Of a stretch of 64,000 nucleotides of DNA, positions 8,586-63,529 are shown in pieces; position 1 is the stretch's first letter, and every line of letters starts with the position of its first letter. The position numbers and the translations under genes were made by a program. The DNA comes from a virus: positions 1 to 64,000 of the IMG/VR virus record IMGVR_UViG_3300036820_000004; one strand, 5' to 3'. Under the pieces are notes generated by a model that was not told where the DNA came from, ran no database searches, and saw only the letters and a list, made by a program, of their open reading frames with translations.

Positions 8586-9979
8586 GATTCCGCCATCCGC
8601 GACGGCGACCACGCGAGGTTGACGAACCGGGCATAGTGGCCGTGGAACCCGACCGTCACCGTGGCCCGCGGCCCGTTGCGGTTCTTGTCGACGATCAGGT
8701 CGGCCTCGCCCGCGCGGGGTGACTCCGGCTCGTAGTGGTCGGGCCGGTGGATCAGGATGGCCACGTCGGAGTCGTTTTCGACGGCGCCGGACTCGCGGGC
8801 ATCCGACAGGTAGGGGCGCTTGTCGTGACGTGACTCAGGGCCGCGGTTCAGCTGGCAGAGCATGATCACCGGGATGCGGAATTCCCGGGCGATGGCCTTG
8901 AGTCCGCCGACAAGCGCGGAAACCTCGCGCTGCCGGTTCTCCCCGGCCGCGCCATCCATCAGTTGCAGGTAGTCGATGATCGCGACCTGCGCGGGTTCGC
9001 GCCGCGCCATGCCGCGCAGCCGGGCCCGGATGTGGGACAAGGTCACCCGGGGCATGTCGTCGATGATGAGTTTGCCGTCGGCGAACTTGTCCGTCACGCC
9101 CGCGATGGCGTCCCAGTCGGCAGATTCCATCGCCGGGGTGGTGATGTGGCCGAGCGGGATGCCGGCCTCGGCTGAGATGAGCCGGTCCATGACCTCGTCG
9201 CGGTCCTGTTCCATCGTGAAGAGGATCGCGGCGATCTTCTGGTGGATCGCCACGTAACGGGCGACACCCAAACCCAGCAGCGACTTGCCGAGCGACGGCC
9301 GCGCGGCGATCGTGACGAGCTGGCCGGGCCGCAGCCACGGGACCACGTCCCGCAGGTCTTCCCACGGAAACTGGATGACCCCGGGCGGCCTGCCGGACTC
9401 GATCCTGTCCAGCGCCGGGATGAACAAGTCAGCGACGGACGCGGGTTCAGTGCCGGTGTCCACGGCGAATGCCTCGTCGATTAGCGCGCGGATGTCGTCC
9501 GCCGTCTCGGCGGGGTCAAAGTCGAAGTCGGACCGCTCGGCGAGCATCTGGCTCGCCCGGGTCAGCGCAAGCAGCCCGCGGCGGCGGACGGCGGCTCTCA
9601 GGACACGGCGGGCGTCGGCCTCGTAGGACGGGGTGGCATGGTGCATCAGGTCGGCCAGGATGACCCCGGCCTGCCCGGTCTGCCACTGCCCGCGTTCGGT
9701 CGCGACCAACCGGGCCAGGACCGCTTGCGGTGTCAGTGCCTCGCCTTCCTCGGCGAGGTAACGCACCGCCCCGTAGACCGCCTGATGCATCGTGTCGGCG
9801 AAGAAATCCTCGGCCGGGAGAATCTCGATGATGGCCTCGGCGGCTCGCCGTCCGTCGATCACGGCGCTCGCGTTTCCGCCGAGCATCGCACCGAGAATGG
9901 CCTTCTCGGCGAGGATGACATCCGGCGTCTGGCCGGGAGCGGACAGAACCTGCCCGTTGCCCCTGGCGGTGACGGTCAT
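8582..9979 (-). CDS. dnaB: replicative DnaB-family helicase
   Basis: AEKAILGAM N-domain; AARPSLGKS Walker A; IIDYLQLM; QLNR; RESGAVENDSD; KNRNGP. Confidence 0.95.
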   Translation of the reverse strand: MTVTARGNGQVLSAPGQTPDVILAEKAILGAMLGGNASAVIDGRRAAEAIIEILPAEDFFADTMHQAVYGAVRYLAEEGEALTPQAVLARLVATERGQWQTGQAGVILADLMHHATPSYEADARRVLRAAVRRRGLLALTRASQMLAERSDFDFDPAETADDIRALIDEAFAVDTGTEPASVADLFIPALDRIESGRPPGVIQFPWEDLRDVVPWLRPGQLVTIAARPSLGKSLLGLGVARYVAIHQKIAAILFTMEQDRDEVMDRLISAEAGIPLGHITTPAMESADWDAIAGVTDKFADGKLIIDDMPRVTLSHIRARLRGMARREPAQVAIIDYLQLMDGAAGENRQREVSALVGGLKAIAREFRIPVIMLCQLNRGPESRHDKRPYLSDARESGAVENDSDVAILIHRPDHYEPESPRAGEADLIVDKNRNGPRATVTVGFHGHYARFVNLAWSPSRMAES

Positions 9980-58267: not shown

Positions 58268-58288
58268 CGTTCGATGCTGGAGGTGACC

Positions 58289-61200
58289 ATGGCCTCCCCT
58301 TCGGCCATCCTCGCAGCGAGCAAATCCATGCCCGGCGGGGGCCGGCCGAACCCGGGCCCCCAGCAGCAGCAAGGCCCTTACATCGGCCGCATGTCCCCGC
58401 TGGTGCAGCAACTCAACAATGAGCATGGATATGCGAATACGTATGGCGGCTTTTTGCCGAGGCCGCCGCAGACGTTTACCGATGGCGCATTCAGCCCGTT
58501 CTCGCCGATCATGCCGGTGCCGATTGATGCGCCACCACCTGGCTTCGAGCGGCCAGAACCCCGGCGATTCGCCTACGAGGTAGGTTACAACCTTCCTATC
58601 GGCGACCCGGGCACTGAGGGCGGCTACAAGCTCGCCCCGTTCTCGGTGCTCAAGTCGCTGTCGAAGAACTACTCGATCGCGCGGCGCTGCATCCAGCTAG
58701 TGAAAAAGGAAGTCTGCGGCCTGGACTGGGACATCACCCTCACCTCCCACGCGGAGAAGGCCTACCAGGGTGACCATGAGGCGCAGCGGGACTTCGGGGA
58801 ACGGCGCGCGAAGGCGATGCGGTTTTTCCGCAAGCCGGACCCGAACTACTTCGACTTCACGTCGTGGATGTCGGCGATGCTGGAGCAGATCCTCACCATC
58901 GACGCCCTGAGCTTGTACCTGTGCCCGAAGAAGGGCACCGGGATGGGCCGGGGCCTGCTCGGCTCGGACCTGGACGGCTTGTGGTGCATCGACGGGGCGA
59001 CGATCCGGCCGCTGCTGAACCTGCACGGCGGCATGCCCGTCCCCCCCGCGCCCGCCTACCAGCAGTACGAGTACGGCGTGCCCCGCGCTGATTTCACGAC
59101 GGTGATGGCCGGCCTGGACCTGCCCGAGATCGCCGGCGGGGAACGCGGGGCTTACCGCGGCGACCAGCTGGTCTACCTGCCGATGTGCCCGTTCCCTGAC
59201 TCGCCGTACGGGTTCTCCCCGACCGAGCAGGCGCTGGTCCCGATCCTGACCGGGCTCCGCAAGCAGGGCTACCAGCTGGAGTTCTTCACCGAGGGCACCG
59301 TGCCCGCGGTTTATATTTCACCAGGCGATACATCCATGACTCCCAATCAGGTAAGGGAGCTTCAGGATGCATTGAATGCGGTCGCGAACGACCAGGCATT
59401 TCATTGGAAAGTCATTGTTTTGCCGCCTGGAAGCAAAACAATGCCACAAAAGCCTAATGATATTGTCGACCAGAGCGACGAGTGGATCGCCAACGAGGTC
59501 TGCATGATGTACGGCGTCTCCCCCATGGACGTCGGCATCCTCCCCAAGGTGTCCACCGTGGCCAGCCCGTTCGCGGCGCGGGAAATGGCGCAGGCCAGCC
59601 GCACCAACCAGGAGAAGACCGACACCACGCCGCTGCTGAAGTTCATCGCCTCGATCCCGAACTTCATCCTCCAGATCGTGTGCGACCAGCCGGACATGGA
59701 GTTCTCGTTCGAGGGCATGCGCGAGGTCCAGGACGAGGCGGCGCTGACCGACACCTACGTCAAGCAGGCGCAGATCGGTGTCCGGTCGGTCGACGAGTTC
59801 CGCGACAAGATCGGCCTGCCGCCGTGGGGCCTGGACGAGACGAGCGGCCCGCTGGTGTTCACGCCGATGGGACCGATCCCCCTGTCGGAGGCCGTGTCGA
59901 TCGCGCAGGCGCAGGCACAGGCCAAGGCACTGCCGCCCGGGTCGTCCGGCGCCAAAAAGCCCGCGGTGACCGCGAAGCCGCTGCCGTCCGGCACCGTCAC
60001 CGGGCGGCAGCGCGCCCGCGGCGGTGCCGCGCTCACCCCGGCGCACGCCGCGTCCGAAGGGTTCATGCCCGAACGGTCGGCCAAGAAGCCCTCGGCGGGC
60101 CCGGCTCACGCCCAGGCGTCAGTTAAGGCGACGCTGGCCGAACTGGAGGCCCTGACCCGGCACCTGCGCAAGGGACGCCTGATCTCCACATGGGAAGCCC
60201 GGCATCTCGAGCCCCGCGCGCTGTCGCTGATCGCCGAGCAGATGGCGAAGGGCATGGACGCCGAGCAGGCCGCGGGCCTGGTGAAGACCATCGTCCTGCC
60301 GCCCGCGTCCTACCAGTGGGCAGAGAAGGCCCGGCACGAGCAGTCCCCGCAGGCTCAGATCCAGGCGCAGCAACTGGCCCTGGAGCAGGAGTACACGCGG
60401 CGGATCGAGGCCGCGTTCGCGTCCGCTGCCGCCGCGGCGGCGAAACTCATCGCCGCGTGGGGCGCGGGCACTCTCGCCGTGACTACCGCGGTCCTCGCCG
60501 GGCTCATCGCCGCCGAGTTGCGCAAGGCGCTGACGGCAGCGCTGAGCGGCCTGTGGGCCGACGCGTGGGCGCACGGCGAAGCCGAAGCAGGCGGATCCGC
60601 TGGCGGGGCGCTGGAAGCGTTCCTCGGCACCGTCGGCCGGCAGGTGCAGGAGTGGGTCAGCGAAACCAACGTCGCCGCCATCATCGCCGACCTGCGGGAC
60701 CTGGCCGGCCTGAAACGCAAGGCCCTGATCGCCGCGCTGCTGCGACTCCTCAAGGCAGATGAGCGGGCCGAACTCATCGCTGTCACCGAGCTGATGCGCG
60801 CCTGGAACCAGGCCGTTCTCGCCGTCTGGAAGCTGCTCGGGGTCACCTATAAGGGCTGGCAGACCCGCAACGACGCCAAGGTGTGTTTCCCCGCAGGTAC
60901 GCCCGTGGCGACGCCGACTGGCGAAGTGCCGATCGAGCGGCTAAAGCCCGGGGATCTCGTCATCACGCCAGAGGGGCAGCGTCCCGTCATTGCCACCATG
61001 GAGCGCCTGTACACAGGTGGCCTTACGGTGATTCAGGCGGAAGGCCGGACGGTCACGGCGACTGACAATCACCGGTTCATGACCACCAACGGCTGGCGCA
61101 AGGCTGCCGACCTCAAGCCCGGGGACCTCCTCAAGTCGCTTGAGGACGAGTCGGCAGAGATTGGCAGCGTCGTTCACTTCTCGCTCGCCCAGCCGGATGA

Positions 61201-63529
61201 CGTGCCAGCCGAGGCGGCCAAGTTCCGCATCGCGGATGGCGTCCTTGGCCGCAGTCCGCTGGTGCCAGTACTCGCCGTCGGCCTCAATGGCGACGGCGAG
61301 ACTGGTGAGCGCGAAGTCGATCGTCCAGCGGCTCACGTCAAGTTCGGGCGTGAACTCAAGGCGCAGCAGGGTGAGCGCCTGACGGACGCGGAACTCCAGC
61401 ATGGTCTCGCCCGTAAACTTGCGGTAGCAACTGCGGGAGCAGAACTGCCGATCGGCAGCGGCAAGGCCCGGCTGCGTGCGGAAGGTGACACTGCACGTCT
61501 TGCAGGTGAGGTAGACCGGTGGCCGGCGGCATTCCTCGGAACAGAACCGCCTGTTGAGATGCTTCTCAGCCCGGAAACGCGTTCCGCAGCGGTCACAGTC
61601 GACGTACTTGGTCTCGGCAGTGGTACATGCCCGCGAGCACGTCCTGTAGCGCTCGGCGGTGGACTGGCTGACGGTGAAGTCCTTGCCGCAGACAATGCAG
61701 GTCTTCGTGACCTTGCAACTGTCCTCGTAGCACGCCCGGGAGCAGTGGATCTTGGTCTTGTTATTGAGCCTGCCGGGGCGGAAGACGATGCCGCAGCCCG
61801 GGCAAGTGCGTTCGGCGTGGACGCGCGTAGCGGTGTGATAGCACTCGTTGGAGCAGAAGACTCGGGGGCTCCGGGTGCGCTGAGCACGCACGACGATTTT
61901 GCTGCACTGGGCGCATTGGTAAGTGAATGGCACGGACAGGCTTCCCCCATTCAAGCCATTATCGTTAATCACCCGCTTACAGTTTACAATGTCAGCGTTG
62001 AAACGGAGCCCGTTTACTACGCGAGTCGCTTCCTAGTTCACAATTGCGGGGAATGCAAGGCCAACCAGGCGGCCGGCTCCATTCCCGTCGGTGCGCGTTT
62101 CCCCAGCGGCGACCTGATGCCGCCAGGACATCCGCGCTGCCGGTGTCATGCGACCGCGCCCCCGCCCGGCTGGACACCCCCGGTCACGGCCGCGAACAAG
62201 AAGCGCAAGCGGGGCGTGAACCTGGACGGCGAAGTCGTTCTGGCCGACGCCAAGCCCGGAGACGAGAACCCTGCCGGCGGAGGTGGCCGCACCCTTTACC
62301 CGCACCGCCCTGACGGAACCGAGGTACCCGGGGGTGTTCCCGGCGCGTCTGCGGGAGGGGAGCCGCCGCGCTGGGACGCCTCCACCCCGGAACGCCGCGG
62401 CTACGTCAACACCTACGGCGAGGACGACGGCGACTGGCCTGAGCATGTCCGCGAGGTCGCGCCCAGGCCGGATCAGGACTACCCGGACGGCGGCGGCGAA
62501 GACGAGGACCTGTGGCCGGAAGGCGGCCACGGCACCGCCCAGCCCCCGGTGACGTCGATCGGCGGCGGACCGCGCGGCCGGGCACCAAACGCGGTGGGCA
62601 AGGCCGCCGACGCTGCGGCACAGTTCCTGAAGGACGCGCCGAAGGCCAAGGCCAGCGCGGTGCGCAAGCTCATGCAGGAGAACTTCCCGCCGGACGCCCT
62701 CGCCTGGGTAGGTCGCGCCACATGGGTGGGCCCCGTTGAGATCCCGCTGGAACTCATGGACCTGTCCGGCCGGAAGGGGTGGGCGGCGAGCCACCAGCAG
62801 GGCCACGTCAAGGCCATCGCCCGCGACCTGAAGGCCGGCCGGAAAGTCAACGAGATCATCGGCGTGCTGCGCCCGGGTCACAACCACGTCCGCCTTGTTG
62901 ACGGCAGGCATCGCACCCTGGCCTGCGAGAAGAACAAGATGCCGGTCCGCGGCTACGTCGGGTTCCTGGACCGCGACTCCGACCTGGAAGCGGCGTATGA
63001 CACCTACCACCAGCAGCATCACTTCGGGGACAGCCCGAAGAACAAGGCCGCAGGCTACGACCTGAGCCCGCGGTCGGGCATGATCTCCCTGGACCTGCCG
63101 GAAGGCCTCATCCAGCCGGTGCCCGGCGGCGTGGACGACCACCACGTGACGGTCGCCTACCTCGGCAAGGATGTGGACGATAGGGAGCTGGATATTGTGC
63201 TGGCGCAGGCACGCACCGCGGCCCGGCATGCTCCGGGCCCGCTGGCCGGGATGCTGTCCGGCATCGGCTCATTCCCGCCGTCCGATGGCAGTGACGGCAT
63301 GGTGCCCGCGTTCGTCCCGGCCCGCATCCCCGGCGCGGAGAAGCTCCGCGCCGACCTTGAGCACCTGTCGGCCAGCGAGCACAAGGACTGGGCGCCGCAC
63401 GTCACCCTCGCCTACCTGCAGCCGGGTGAGCCGCTCCCGGCGCCGCATCCCCCGGTGCCGGTGACGTTCACCCACCTGTCAGTGCACCGGGGCGATGAGG
63501 TGTACCGGTTCCCGCTGGGTGGCGAGTGA
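58289..63529 (+). CDS. portal - MuF (with intein) - ParB-like - 2H phosphoesterase fusion
   Basis: Portal: RRCIQLVK, IDGATIRPL, YGFSPTEQ, FFTEGTVP, SVDEFR; MuF: DAKV/CGEC..PPGHPRCRC; LVDGRHR; HVTVAYLG and PHVTLAY. Confidence 0.85.
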   Translation: MASPSAILAASKSMPGGGRPNPGPQQQQGPYIGRMSPLVQQLNNEHGYANTYGGFLPRPPQTFTDGAFSPFSPIMPVPIDAPPPGFERPEPRRFAYEVGYNLPIGDPGTEGGYKLAPFSVLKSLSKNYSIARRCIQLVKKEVCGLDWDITLTSHAEKAYQGDHEAQRDFGERRAKAMRFFRKPDPNYFDFTSWMSAMLEQILTIDALSLYLCPKKGTGMGRGLLGSDLDGLWCIDGATIRPLLNLHGGMPVPPAPAYQQYEYGVPRADFTTVMAGLDLPEIAGGERGAYRGDQLVYLPMCPFPDSPYGFSPTEQALVPILTGLRKQGYQLEFFTEGTVPAVYISPGDTSMTPNQVRELQDALNAVANDQAFHWKVIVLPPGSKTMPQKPNDIVDQSDEWIANEVCMMYGVSPMDVGILPKVSTVASPFAAREMAQASRTNQEKTDTTPLLKFIASIPNFILQIVCDQPDMEFSFEGMREVQDEAALTDTYVKQAQIGVRSVDEFRDKIGLPPWGLDETSGPLVFTPMGPIPLSEAVSIAQAQAQAKALPPGSSGAKKPAVTAKPLPSGTVTGRQRARGGAALTPAHAASEGFMPERSAKKPSAGPAHAQASVKATLAELEALTRHLRKGRLISTWEARHLEPRALSLIAEQMAKGMDAEQAAGLVKTIVLPPASYQWAEKARHEQSPQAQIQAQQLALEQEYTRRIEAAFASAAAAAAKLIAAWGAGTLAVTTAVLAGLIAAELRKALTAALSGLWADAWAHGEAEAGGSAGGALEAFLGTVGRQVQEWVSETNVAAIIADLRDLAGLKRKALIAALLRLLKADERAELIAVTELMRAWNQAVLAVWKLLGVTYKGWQTRNDAKVCFPAGTPVATPTGEVPIERLKPGDLVITPEGQRPVIATMERLYTGGLTVIQAEGRTVTATDNHRFMTTNGWRKAADLKPGDLLKSLEDESAEIGSVVHFSLAQPDDVPAEAAKFRIADGVLGRSPLVPVLAVGLNGDGETGEREVDRPAAHVKFGRELKAQQGERLTDAELQHGLARKLAVATAGAELPIGSGKARLRAEGDTARLAGEVDRWPAAFLGTEPPVEMLLSPETRSAAVTVDVLGLGSGTCPRARPVALGGGLADGEVLAADNAGLRDLATVLVARPGAVDLGLVIEPAGAEDDAAARASAFGVDARSGVIALVGAEDSGAPGALSTHDDFAALGALVSEWHGQASPIQAIIVNHPLTVYNVSVETEPVYYASRFLVHNCGECKANQAAGSIPVGARFPSGDLMPPGHPRCRCHATAPPPGWTPPVTAANKKRKRGVNLDGEVVLADAKPGDENPAGGGGRTLYPHRPDGTEVPGGVPGASAGGEPPRWDASTPERRGYVNTYGEDDGDWPEHVREVAPRPDQDYPDGGGEDEDLWPEGGHGTAQPPVTSIGGGPRGRAPNAVGKAADAAAQFLKDAPKAKASAVRKLMQENFPPDALAWVGRATWVGPVEIPLELMDLSGRKGWAASHQQGHVKAIARDLKAGRKVNEIIGVLRPGHNHVRLVDGRHRTLACEKNKMPVRGYVGFLDRDSDLEAAYDTYHQQHHFGDSPKNKAAGYDLSPRSGMISLDLPEGLIQPVPGGVDDHHVTVAYLGKDVDDRELDIVLAQARTAARHAPGPLAGMLSGIGSFPPSDGSDGMVPAFVPARIPGAEKLRADLEHLSASEHKDWAPHVTLAYLQPGEPLPAPHPPVPVTFTHLSVHRGDEVYRFPLGGE
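60884..62044 (+). mobile_element. intein (387 aa) in MuF domain
   Basis: CFPAGTPVATPTG...TATDNHRF...VYNVSVE..YYASRFLVHN/C; removal restores KVCGEC. Confidence 0.9.
60941..61933 (-). CDS. Zn-finger repeat + DUF559/Vsr-like endonuclease nested antisense in the intein
   Basis: Five CxxC...F...CSxxC repeats; ETMLE, IDFA, AIEADGEYWH, KDAIRD..L..LGW.VIR; GGGGGAAG RBS before GTG 61933. Confidence 0.85.
   Translation of the reverse strand: MPFTYQCAQCSKIVVRAQRTRSPRVFCSNECYHTATRVHAERTCPGCGIVFRPGRLNNKTKIHCSRACYEDSCKVTKTCIVCGKDFTVSQSTAERYRTCSRACTTAETKYVDCDRCGTRFRAEKHLNRRFCSEECRRPPVYLTCKTCSVTFRTQPGLAAADRQFCSRSCYRKFTGETMLEFRVRQALTLLRLEFTPELDVSRWTIDFALTSLAVAIEADGEYWHQRTAAKDAIRDAELGRLGWHVIRLGEREVNDAANLCRLVLKRLEEVPGLEVGSLAPAVGGHEPVIVSRRDRPAFRLNHRKATCVQALHGGNDGTLPLWRDDEIPGL

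Follow-up and report, generated by a model that had tools for sequence, protein, structure and literature searches.

I-Bth0305I, prototype of the EDxHD (Vsr-like) family of homing endonucleases, comes from a group I intron in the recA gene of a phage; its cutting is confined to the uninterrupted allele, and members of the family carry NUMOD-like N-terminal motifs (Taylor et al. 2011, PMC3239194). Between split-intein halves, and on their strand, Dassa et al. (2009, PMC2677866) found genes for Vsr-like nucleases, a type which they stated was not known inside inteins. Endonuclease open reading frames (ORFs) antisense to their inteins have been recorded for the LAGLIDADG family, in Synechocystis dnaX among others (Gorbalenya 1998; Gogarten 2002; both as cited in bioRxiv 10.1101/2025.01.02.630785), and the 'ShiLan' insertion of phage methylases hides an HNH endonuclease that is out of frame (PMC11855218). 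Closest of all, Gosselin, Arsenault and Gogarten (bioRxiv 10.1101/2025.01.02.630785, version 2025-10-20) describe actinobacteriophage minor capsid proteins whose full inteins have antisense VSR-like homing endonucleases. We examined an intein in a 64,000-nucleotide stretch of viral DNA (the window; positions 1 to 64,000 of IMG/VR record IMGVR_UViG_3300036820_000004), which interrupts a portal/MuF-like polyprotein gene at positions 60884-62044. It is very probably a mobile class-1 intein at a conserved MuF-like site, with a homing endonuclease encoded not as an in-frame domain but by a gene of its own on the opposite strand.

This intein is one more divergent case of an antisense layout already in print, not a new category, which bears out the suspicion in the initial annotation of the window, made from the sequence alone, that the arrangement would be rare rather than unprecedented. 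As in the cases presented in the preprint, a contiguous intein lies in what is probably a minor capsid (MuF-type) protein, with a nuclease ORF antisense to it, the nuclease has a Vsr-like fold with a remote match to 3R3P (EDxHD; by HHpred in the preprint), and the in-frame middle of the intein lacks predicted structure. Unlike them, the window copy comes from an uncultivated soil virus record of about 120 kb, sits in a portal-MuF fusion, has five Cys4 modules in its nuclease, and is without a close relative among 50,697 deposited phage records. With the fractured genes of Dassa et al. it shares, as these are described, the nuclease family, the place between the Hint halves and a separate gene with its own signals, but the nuclease of the window is on the opposite strand and the intein is in one piece, whereas fractured genes have everything on the same strand and two trans-splicing ORFs. 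It resembles I-Bth0305I in its nuclease domain, both by sequence (1.6e-14) and by fold (a template modelling (TM) score of 0.8), with the catalytic Asp and His kept, and differs from it in having five Cys4 modules and in being antisense inside an intein. The antisense LAGLIDADG inteins, as cited there, likewise have an endonuclease gene opposite a contiguous intein, with another nuclease family and other host genes. In the ShiLan case, too, the host gene is reported to read through the insertion in frame while a second frame encodes a homing nuclease, but on the same strand, without Hint domains and without splicing.

Because the layout is in the 2025 preprint, the window matters mainly as one more divergent member. 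Its relatives add to the published description in four respects: recurrence, avoidance of codons complementary to stops, frame-specific selection, and a spread well beyond cultured actinophages. A term search of the main text of the preprint (supplements apart) found nothing said of codon register, promoters or metagenomic spread, and stop codons and purifying selection figure there only as a prediction that idle antisense ORFs decay. About 750 bases appear to be read on both strands into two mutually dependent proteins, with a different constraint on each frame: the linker need only stay stop-free, and the nuclease must avoid three codons. This makes a clean natural case of antisense overlapping genes, of a kind that gene callers miss; the nuclease of the four-module relatives in cluster-P-type mycobacteriophages is either uncalled or labelled hypothetical.

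The sense strand holds the following features (pLDDT, short for predicted local distance difference test, is that of AlphaFold2 models; dN/dS is the ratio of nonsynonymous to synonymous divergence; aa, amino acids):

60872..60883, plus strand: left half of the presumed homing site, the end of the N-extein; a related contig, L004, has the uninterrupted '..DAKV-C..C'.
60884..62044, plus strand: class-1 intein, 387 aa, stop-free, residues 871-1257 of the polyprotein.
60884..61198, plus strand: N-terminal Hint half, intein aa 1-105; pLDDT of the block 91-97; sense dN/dS 0.24-0.47 in five pairs.
61199..61954, plus strand: sense-frame filler, intein aa 106-357, an antisense read-through of the nuclease gene; pLDDT below 50 throughout.
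61955..62044, plus strand: C-terminal Hint part, intein aa 358-387, with blocks F and G; pLDDT of the block 84-95.
62045..62056, plus strand: right half of the presumed homing site, the start of the C-extein, from reading of the flank and comparison with L004.

The intein begins with a Cys (Cys871), ends with His-Asn ('VHN') and is followed by another Cys. Profile searches of both frames, one of the checks suggested with the initial annotation, returned a Hint domain in the sense protein (Pfam Hint_2, 41.8 bits against a cut-off of 28.4, with Intein_splicing below its cut-off) and DUF559 in the antisense one; Pfam found no endonuclease family in the sense-frame protein. When the intein is aligned with those of 29 relatives, the boundary of one deviant relative having been corrected beforehand, Cys1, Thr60 and His63 (block B, 'TDNH') and His386-Asn387 are invariant (30/30), Cys follows the intein in the window and, with one exception, in the relatives, and a C-terminal Hint motif, 'VY[DN]..VE....FYANG.LVHN', is kept. 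An AlphaFold2 model built on this alignment, and not set against solved inteins, exceeds a pLDDT of 90 at residues 1-105, reaches 84-95 at 358-387 and folds nowhere else. The initial annotation thus read the sense strand correctly, both in describing a 387-aa intein with normal splicing blocks that splits the portal fusion and in stating that its central part has no recognisable endonuclease, the filler being unstructured in the model; the flanks of the MuF junction are also as it gave them. Cys1, the TxxH of block B, His-Asn/Cys+1 and the Hint fold place the element in class 1, with splicing predicted from these residues. Since the splicing residues are invariant and the phage needs an intact head protein, the two Hint halves would be expected to associate and splice.

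On the opposite strand, between and partly over the Hint codons, lie:

60941..61933, minus strand: homing-endonuclease gene, 330 aa, with a GTG start at 61933 (placed by homologue alignment) and its stop at 60941-60943.
61941..61948, minus strand: Shine-Dalgarno-like GGGGGAAG, 7 nt upstream of the GTG at 61933; its function is presumed.
61934..62044, minus strand: AT-rich stretch (49% guanine plus cytosine, GC), a candidate promoter region upstream of the nuclease gene and within the C-terminal Hint codons.
61427..61915, minus strand: five Cys4 (CxxC ... CSxxC) modules, presumed to be a zinc-binding DNA-recognition region; pLDDT 80-95.
61103..61420, minus strand: EDxHD/DUF559 nuclease domain, from Pfam DUF559, a profile match to 3r3p_A and a Foldseek match to 3r3p.
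60944..61102, minus strand: unstructured C-terminal tail of the nuclease ORF, overlying N-terminal Hint codons; pLDDT mostly below 50.

The full minus-strand ORF spans 60941-61972 (343 aa counted from the first GTG), and the GTG at 61933 is its likely start, as it aligns to the Met of 'MPFTYEC' in homologues. The initial annotation had pointed to both the Shine-Dalgarno-like sequence and the AT-rich stretch, and both are there: the latter contrasts with surroundings of 64-71% GC and contains the hexamer GATAAT, and TATAAT-like hexamers occur within 30 nt of the nuclease start in many relatives. Pfam identifies DUF559 in the ORF (37.5 bits, cut-off 20.6), together with MTES_1575 and, weakly, Vsr, while the PHROG families that it matches are annotated as HNH endonuclease. 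The best match of the family profile is 3r3p_A, the catalytic domain of I-Bth0305I (1.6e-14), followed by the DUF559 structure 3hrl (2.7e-9) and, weakly, Vsr. An AlphaFold2 model built on an alignment of 21 homologues is confident from about residue 11 to 290, most of aa 294-343 falling below a pLDDT of 50 in three segments, and 3r3p occupies ranks 1-2 in a Foldseek search with it (TM 0.79-0.81). Asp219 and His237 are invariant in the 21 sequences and align with two Ala positions of the 3r3p construct, which are the inactivating D196A and H213A mutations of I-Bth0305I (PMC3239194). The cysteines of modules 2-5 are likewise invariant, one of them nearly so; module 1 has two nearly invariant cysteines, Cys40 and Cys44, and two, Cys20 and Cys23, that appear in neither conservation list. 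The modules have weak profile matches to zinc fingers of the FCS/MYM/YacG type. These results agree with the earlier description of a protein read from 61933 to 60941 with five CxxC/CSxxC modules and a DUF559/Vsr-like nuclease, and the tail of about 65 codons that it placed over the N-terminal Hint domain corresponds to what remains of the ORF beyond the Pfam DUF559 match (aa 278-343). They support a conserved, foldable EDxHD/Vsr-like nuclease related to I-Bth0305I, with cleavage predicted from this kinship.

In a large protein collection 43 homologues of the nuclease were found at E<=1e-5 among 4110 candidates, the best being 79% identical. A scan of metagenome contigs with the nuclease alignment gave at least 596 pattern matches, and at least 190 after confirmation; the best 80 of these, with 18 loci from viral contigs, make up the 98 loci examined here, some of which are duplicates (L005-L008 hardly differ, a single contig underlies L004 and L024, and L047/L050, L054/L057 and L065/L067 have identical or paired values). 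Profiles grown from the two Hint parts of the window, N- and C-terminal, were run against all ORFs of these loci. Both Hint parts flank the nuclease gene on the opposite strand in 35 of the 98; one more (L020) has the same antisense layout beyond the distance filter, two at contig ends (L051 and L062) have one Hint part only, and 51 have no Hint match. The inteins whose boundaries could be set (29 loci) are 329-433 aa long and stop-free, and in most of them the junction reads 'W.T..D.R[VT]' before the intein and 'C..C' after it. In every antisense locus where the filter found the nuclease frame, the two frames are codon-aligned.

One uninterrupted sense ORF holds both Hint parts in 36/36 cases (the window and the 35 loci), over a GC range of 0.33-0.73. 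This bears on the possibility that the host gene is 'fractured', with no sense read-through and with a free-standing nuclease gene enclosed by Hint halves that work as a split intein, as in the 12 metagenomic fractured-gene loci in which Dassa et al. (PMC2677866) report Vsr-like nuclease genes between split-intein halves. Fractured genes have host gene and intein split into two ORFs, whereas there is a single sense ORF in the window and its 35 relatives, with no sense stop in 36/36 although up to 15 are expected; in fractured genes the nuclease shares the strand of the host gene, which it does not do here, and the C-terminal half here needs no start codon or ribosome-binding site. We regard a fractured gene as very improbable.

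The sense and minus-strand frames of the window share their codon triplets and are both stop-free, as the initial annotation had noted and as the ORF list and the computed register show. The composition of the DNA indicates which of them dominates: the GC-rich codon position in the flanks is sense position 3 (0.87), but between 61151 and 61900 the peak (0.83) falls on sense position 1, equivalent to position 3 of the minus strand, and sense position 3 has 0.57. The two AlphaFold2 models are complementary, so that each protein is unstructured where the other is structured, except for about 30 codons (61103-61198) in which both are predicted to be folded.

In the shared register, a stop in the sense frame corresponds to one of three nuclease codons, TTA, CTA or TCA, whose expected numbers were computed from the codon usage of flanking genes. 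In the window 1.6 of these stop-complement codons are expected and none is present (probability of none, 0.2). The AT-rich relatives are more telling, with 15.1 expected and 0 found in L006 (P about 4e-11) and 10.6 expected and 0 found in L009 (P about 1e-6), and the central regions of antisense-type loci contain no stops. A control count was made within the nuclease envelope at loci with at least 200 profile positions. The three codons are absent from 37/37 antisense-type loci, and from 3/18 loci without a Hint part nearby, the other 15 having 1-25 of them; among the latter are GC-rich loci (L004 with 5, L022 with 4 and L036 with 3). At loci with the nuclease on the same strand in another frame the number without such codons is 0/4 (counts of 2-14). 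Across the relatives the open sense frame is thus significantly beyond chance.

Selection acts on different frames in different parts of the intein. In the central region, divergence at nuclease codon positions 1/2/3 is 0.45/0.42/0.66 (528 pairs from 33 non-duplicate loci) and amino acid identity between loci is 44% in the nuclease frame against 23% in the sense frame; the pattern is unchanged when the alignment follows the sense translation. With the Nei-Gojobori method (NG86), dN/dS in the centre is 0.051/0.28 (0.18) for the nuclease frame and 0.087/0.11 (0.78) for the sense frame in the pair L038/L040, and 0.39/1.0 (0.39) and 0.53/0.39 (1.37), respectively, for the window and L003. In the N-terminal Hint region the order is reversed, sense dN/dS being 0.24-0.47 and that of the opposite frame 0.63-0.85, with the sense value lower in 5/5 pairs. 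Saturation is close at the synonymous sites of the more distant pairs, and estimates of this kind are biased where frames overlap; the result lies in the direction of the asymmetry and not in the values. Purifying selection is therefore on the nuclease frame in the middle of the intein and on the intein frame in its Hint parts, in answer to the question of dN/dS in each frame that the initial annotation had raised.

GC-rich genomes often have open antisense frames in codon register, and the opposite frame is open in three of the Hint-less relatives too, from which it might be argued that the minus-strand ORF is no gene and, the DNA being GC-rich, stays open by chance. That view can hardly be credited beside a DUF559 match above cut-off, 43 homologues and a confident I-Bth0305I-like fold, beside the third-position GC signal on the minus strand and a nuclease-frame dN/dS below 1, or beside the presence of the gene in AT-rich loci.

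For an opposite-strand homing endonuclease gene inside a class-1 intein, the following course of events can be proposed. The portal-MuF precursor would be translated straight through, the roughly 250 filler codons being a reverse-complement reading of the nuclease gene; the filler would form a disordered linker, the Hint halves would dock, and the intein would splice itself out. The nuclease would be made from its own minus-strand message, with start signals inside or just beyond the C-terminal Hint codons. It would then cut intein-less MuF alleles of co-infecting phages, as suggested by analogy with I-Bth0305I and its restriction to the uninterrupted allele, and repair would copy intein and nuclease gene together. 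The two frames could coexist in that their triplets are shared and TTA, CTA and TCA, which alone among codons would put a stop in the sense frame, are avoided by the nuclease gene.

Several observations weigh against this picture. The open sense frame of the window, taken alone, could be due to chance. A consensus scan of 60700-62400 found no promoter-like (two-hexamer sigma-70) site, and its one terminator-like site is within chance; no RNA run containing the window stretch turned up among the sequencing runs searched. The initial annotation had called for homologous MuF genes with and without the intein, and these were only partly obtained: antisense inteins are present at 35 loci and L004 has an empty MuF site ('..DAKV-C..C', with 29/48 bases identical to the joined flanks of the window), but a scan of viral contigs with the N-extein (60200-60883) brought up no close extein relative. 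Nor was there an intein-less allele in the one DNA run searched, a run labelled as soil metagenome, which has one identical contig and no joint across the intein, and which may be the source of the record. With neither an intein-less allele nor a close extein relative, recent mobility of the window copy is not supported. Phage_Mu_F, finally, is not reported by Pfam for the window's own protein at E<=0.1, so its assignment to MuF rests on relatives with the same junction. Two of these exceed the cut-off of 29.6 (L006 with 41.3 bits and L017 with 44.6 bits) and have the intein junction at roughly position 78 of the Phage_Mu_F model, which has 112 positions, and the C-extein of the window aligns to the MuF region of L004 at 3e-8.

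On a quick tree of the nuclease relatives (with SH-aLRT, Shimodaira-Hasegawa-like approximate likelihood ratio test, support), intein-embedded and Hint-less genes interleave, with at least 4 changes forced by well-supported branches; the nuclease gene may consequently move independently of the intein, which also counts against a joint homing unit. The nuclease could then be an independent selfish element lodged in the intein, or kept for another role, and the intein would no longer home as a unit with it. The free-standing copy of L004, 47% identical and about 2.4 kb from an intein-less MuF gene, would fit such an element, as would the distant free-standing relatives adjoining DNA methylase genes in cluster-P-type mycobacteriophages and the vertical-looking inheritance that the 2025 preprint (10.1101/2025.01.02.630785) describes for most of its VSR-like cases. 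Yet in each of the 36 loci the nuclease occupies the place between the Hint halves where endonucleases are canonically inserted, and it has been co-inherited with the same extein site over deep divergence, and any cut near the extein site would co-convert intein and nuclease. An independent element seems unlikely on these grounds, and we prefer to see intein and opposite-strand nuclease as parts of one homing element.

Antisense in codon register, found at 38 loci, is not the only way in which this nuclease is housed by inteins. Four loci (L068:889-3393, L069:1893-4100, L072:3-1652 and L083:397-2742) have it on the same strand, in the +1 frame, inside a contiguous intein; their '.E.DG.YWH' motif is intact and their sense ORF open throughout, a second kind of double coding, and none of the four has a MuF match. 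In the 2025 preprint (10.1101/2025.01.02.630785) a separate frame on the same strand is described only for endonuclease VII-like genes. Three MuF-type inteins (L017:3455-6382, L071:1597-3948 and L082:1471-4401) carry a DUF559 nuclease fused in frame, with DUF559 at 52-53 bits in L071 and L082. The L017 intein shares the MuF site of the antisense loci, while L071 and L082 have MuF domains and other junctions, that of L082 being at a motif with '..HPR' before the intein and 'CRC' after it. It is conceivable, if on balance doubtful, that these layouts and the free-standing copies of the L004 type are living intermediates on the way from a free-standing gene to an intein domain, with the antisense state long-lived and stable (33-73% GC) through avoidance of three codons.

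Outside inteins, the L004 nuclease gene (L004:4971-5954, on a GC-rich viral contig, with 5 stop-complement codons and no Hint domain) has a C-terminal tail that still resembles the antisense reading of the N-terminal Hint segment. The intein-less MuF gene of that contig (L004:8321-10375) ends in an ADP-ribosyltransferase exoenzyme domain (51.5 bits). A DNA search with 60600-62300 against the deposited phages had no match, and a scan of genome contigs with the nuclease found no relative. The only deposited-phage relatives of the nuclease are free-standing genes, about 25% identical and with four modules, beside the DNA methylase genes of cluster-P-type mycobacteriophages. Two were inspected, in Mycobacterium phage KilKor (L001, 2501-3262) and phage Kari (L002, 2468-3265), each at 25% identity. 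In both, the gene runs against the forward genes on either side, and about 65 nt of it overlap with the end of a DNA methyltransferase gene; Kari has it labelled as 'endonuclease', and in KilKor it is uncalled.

The host gene of the intein, in a high-GC record of 119,753 bp, is a single ORF:

58274..63529, plus strand: 1751-aa portal/MuF-like polyprotein, with a portal part, a MuF-like region containing the intein and a C-terminal 2'-5' RNA ligase/2H-like domain.

The portal part is recognised by Pfam (Phage_portal, 60 bits) and PHROG (portal, 2.1e-53). The roughly 490 aa that follow the intein (62045-63529) end in a 2'-5' RNA ligase/LigT-like (2H) region, where Pfam gives 2_5_RNA_ligase2 at 24.9 bits and a second 2H match at 14.7 bits, both below cut-off; in L004 the region resembling this end is a separate ORF. 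The AT-rich viral contigs L006 and L007 have a second N-terminal Hint match (7e-16; 9441-9767 in each), about 3.4 kb from the MuF intein, and their phages probably carry another intein.

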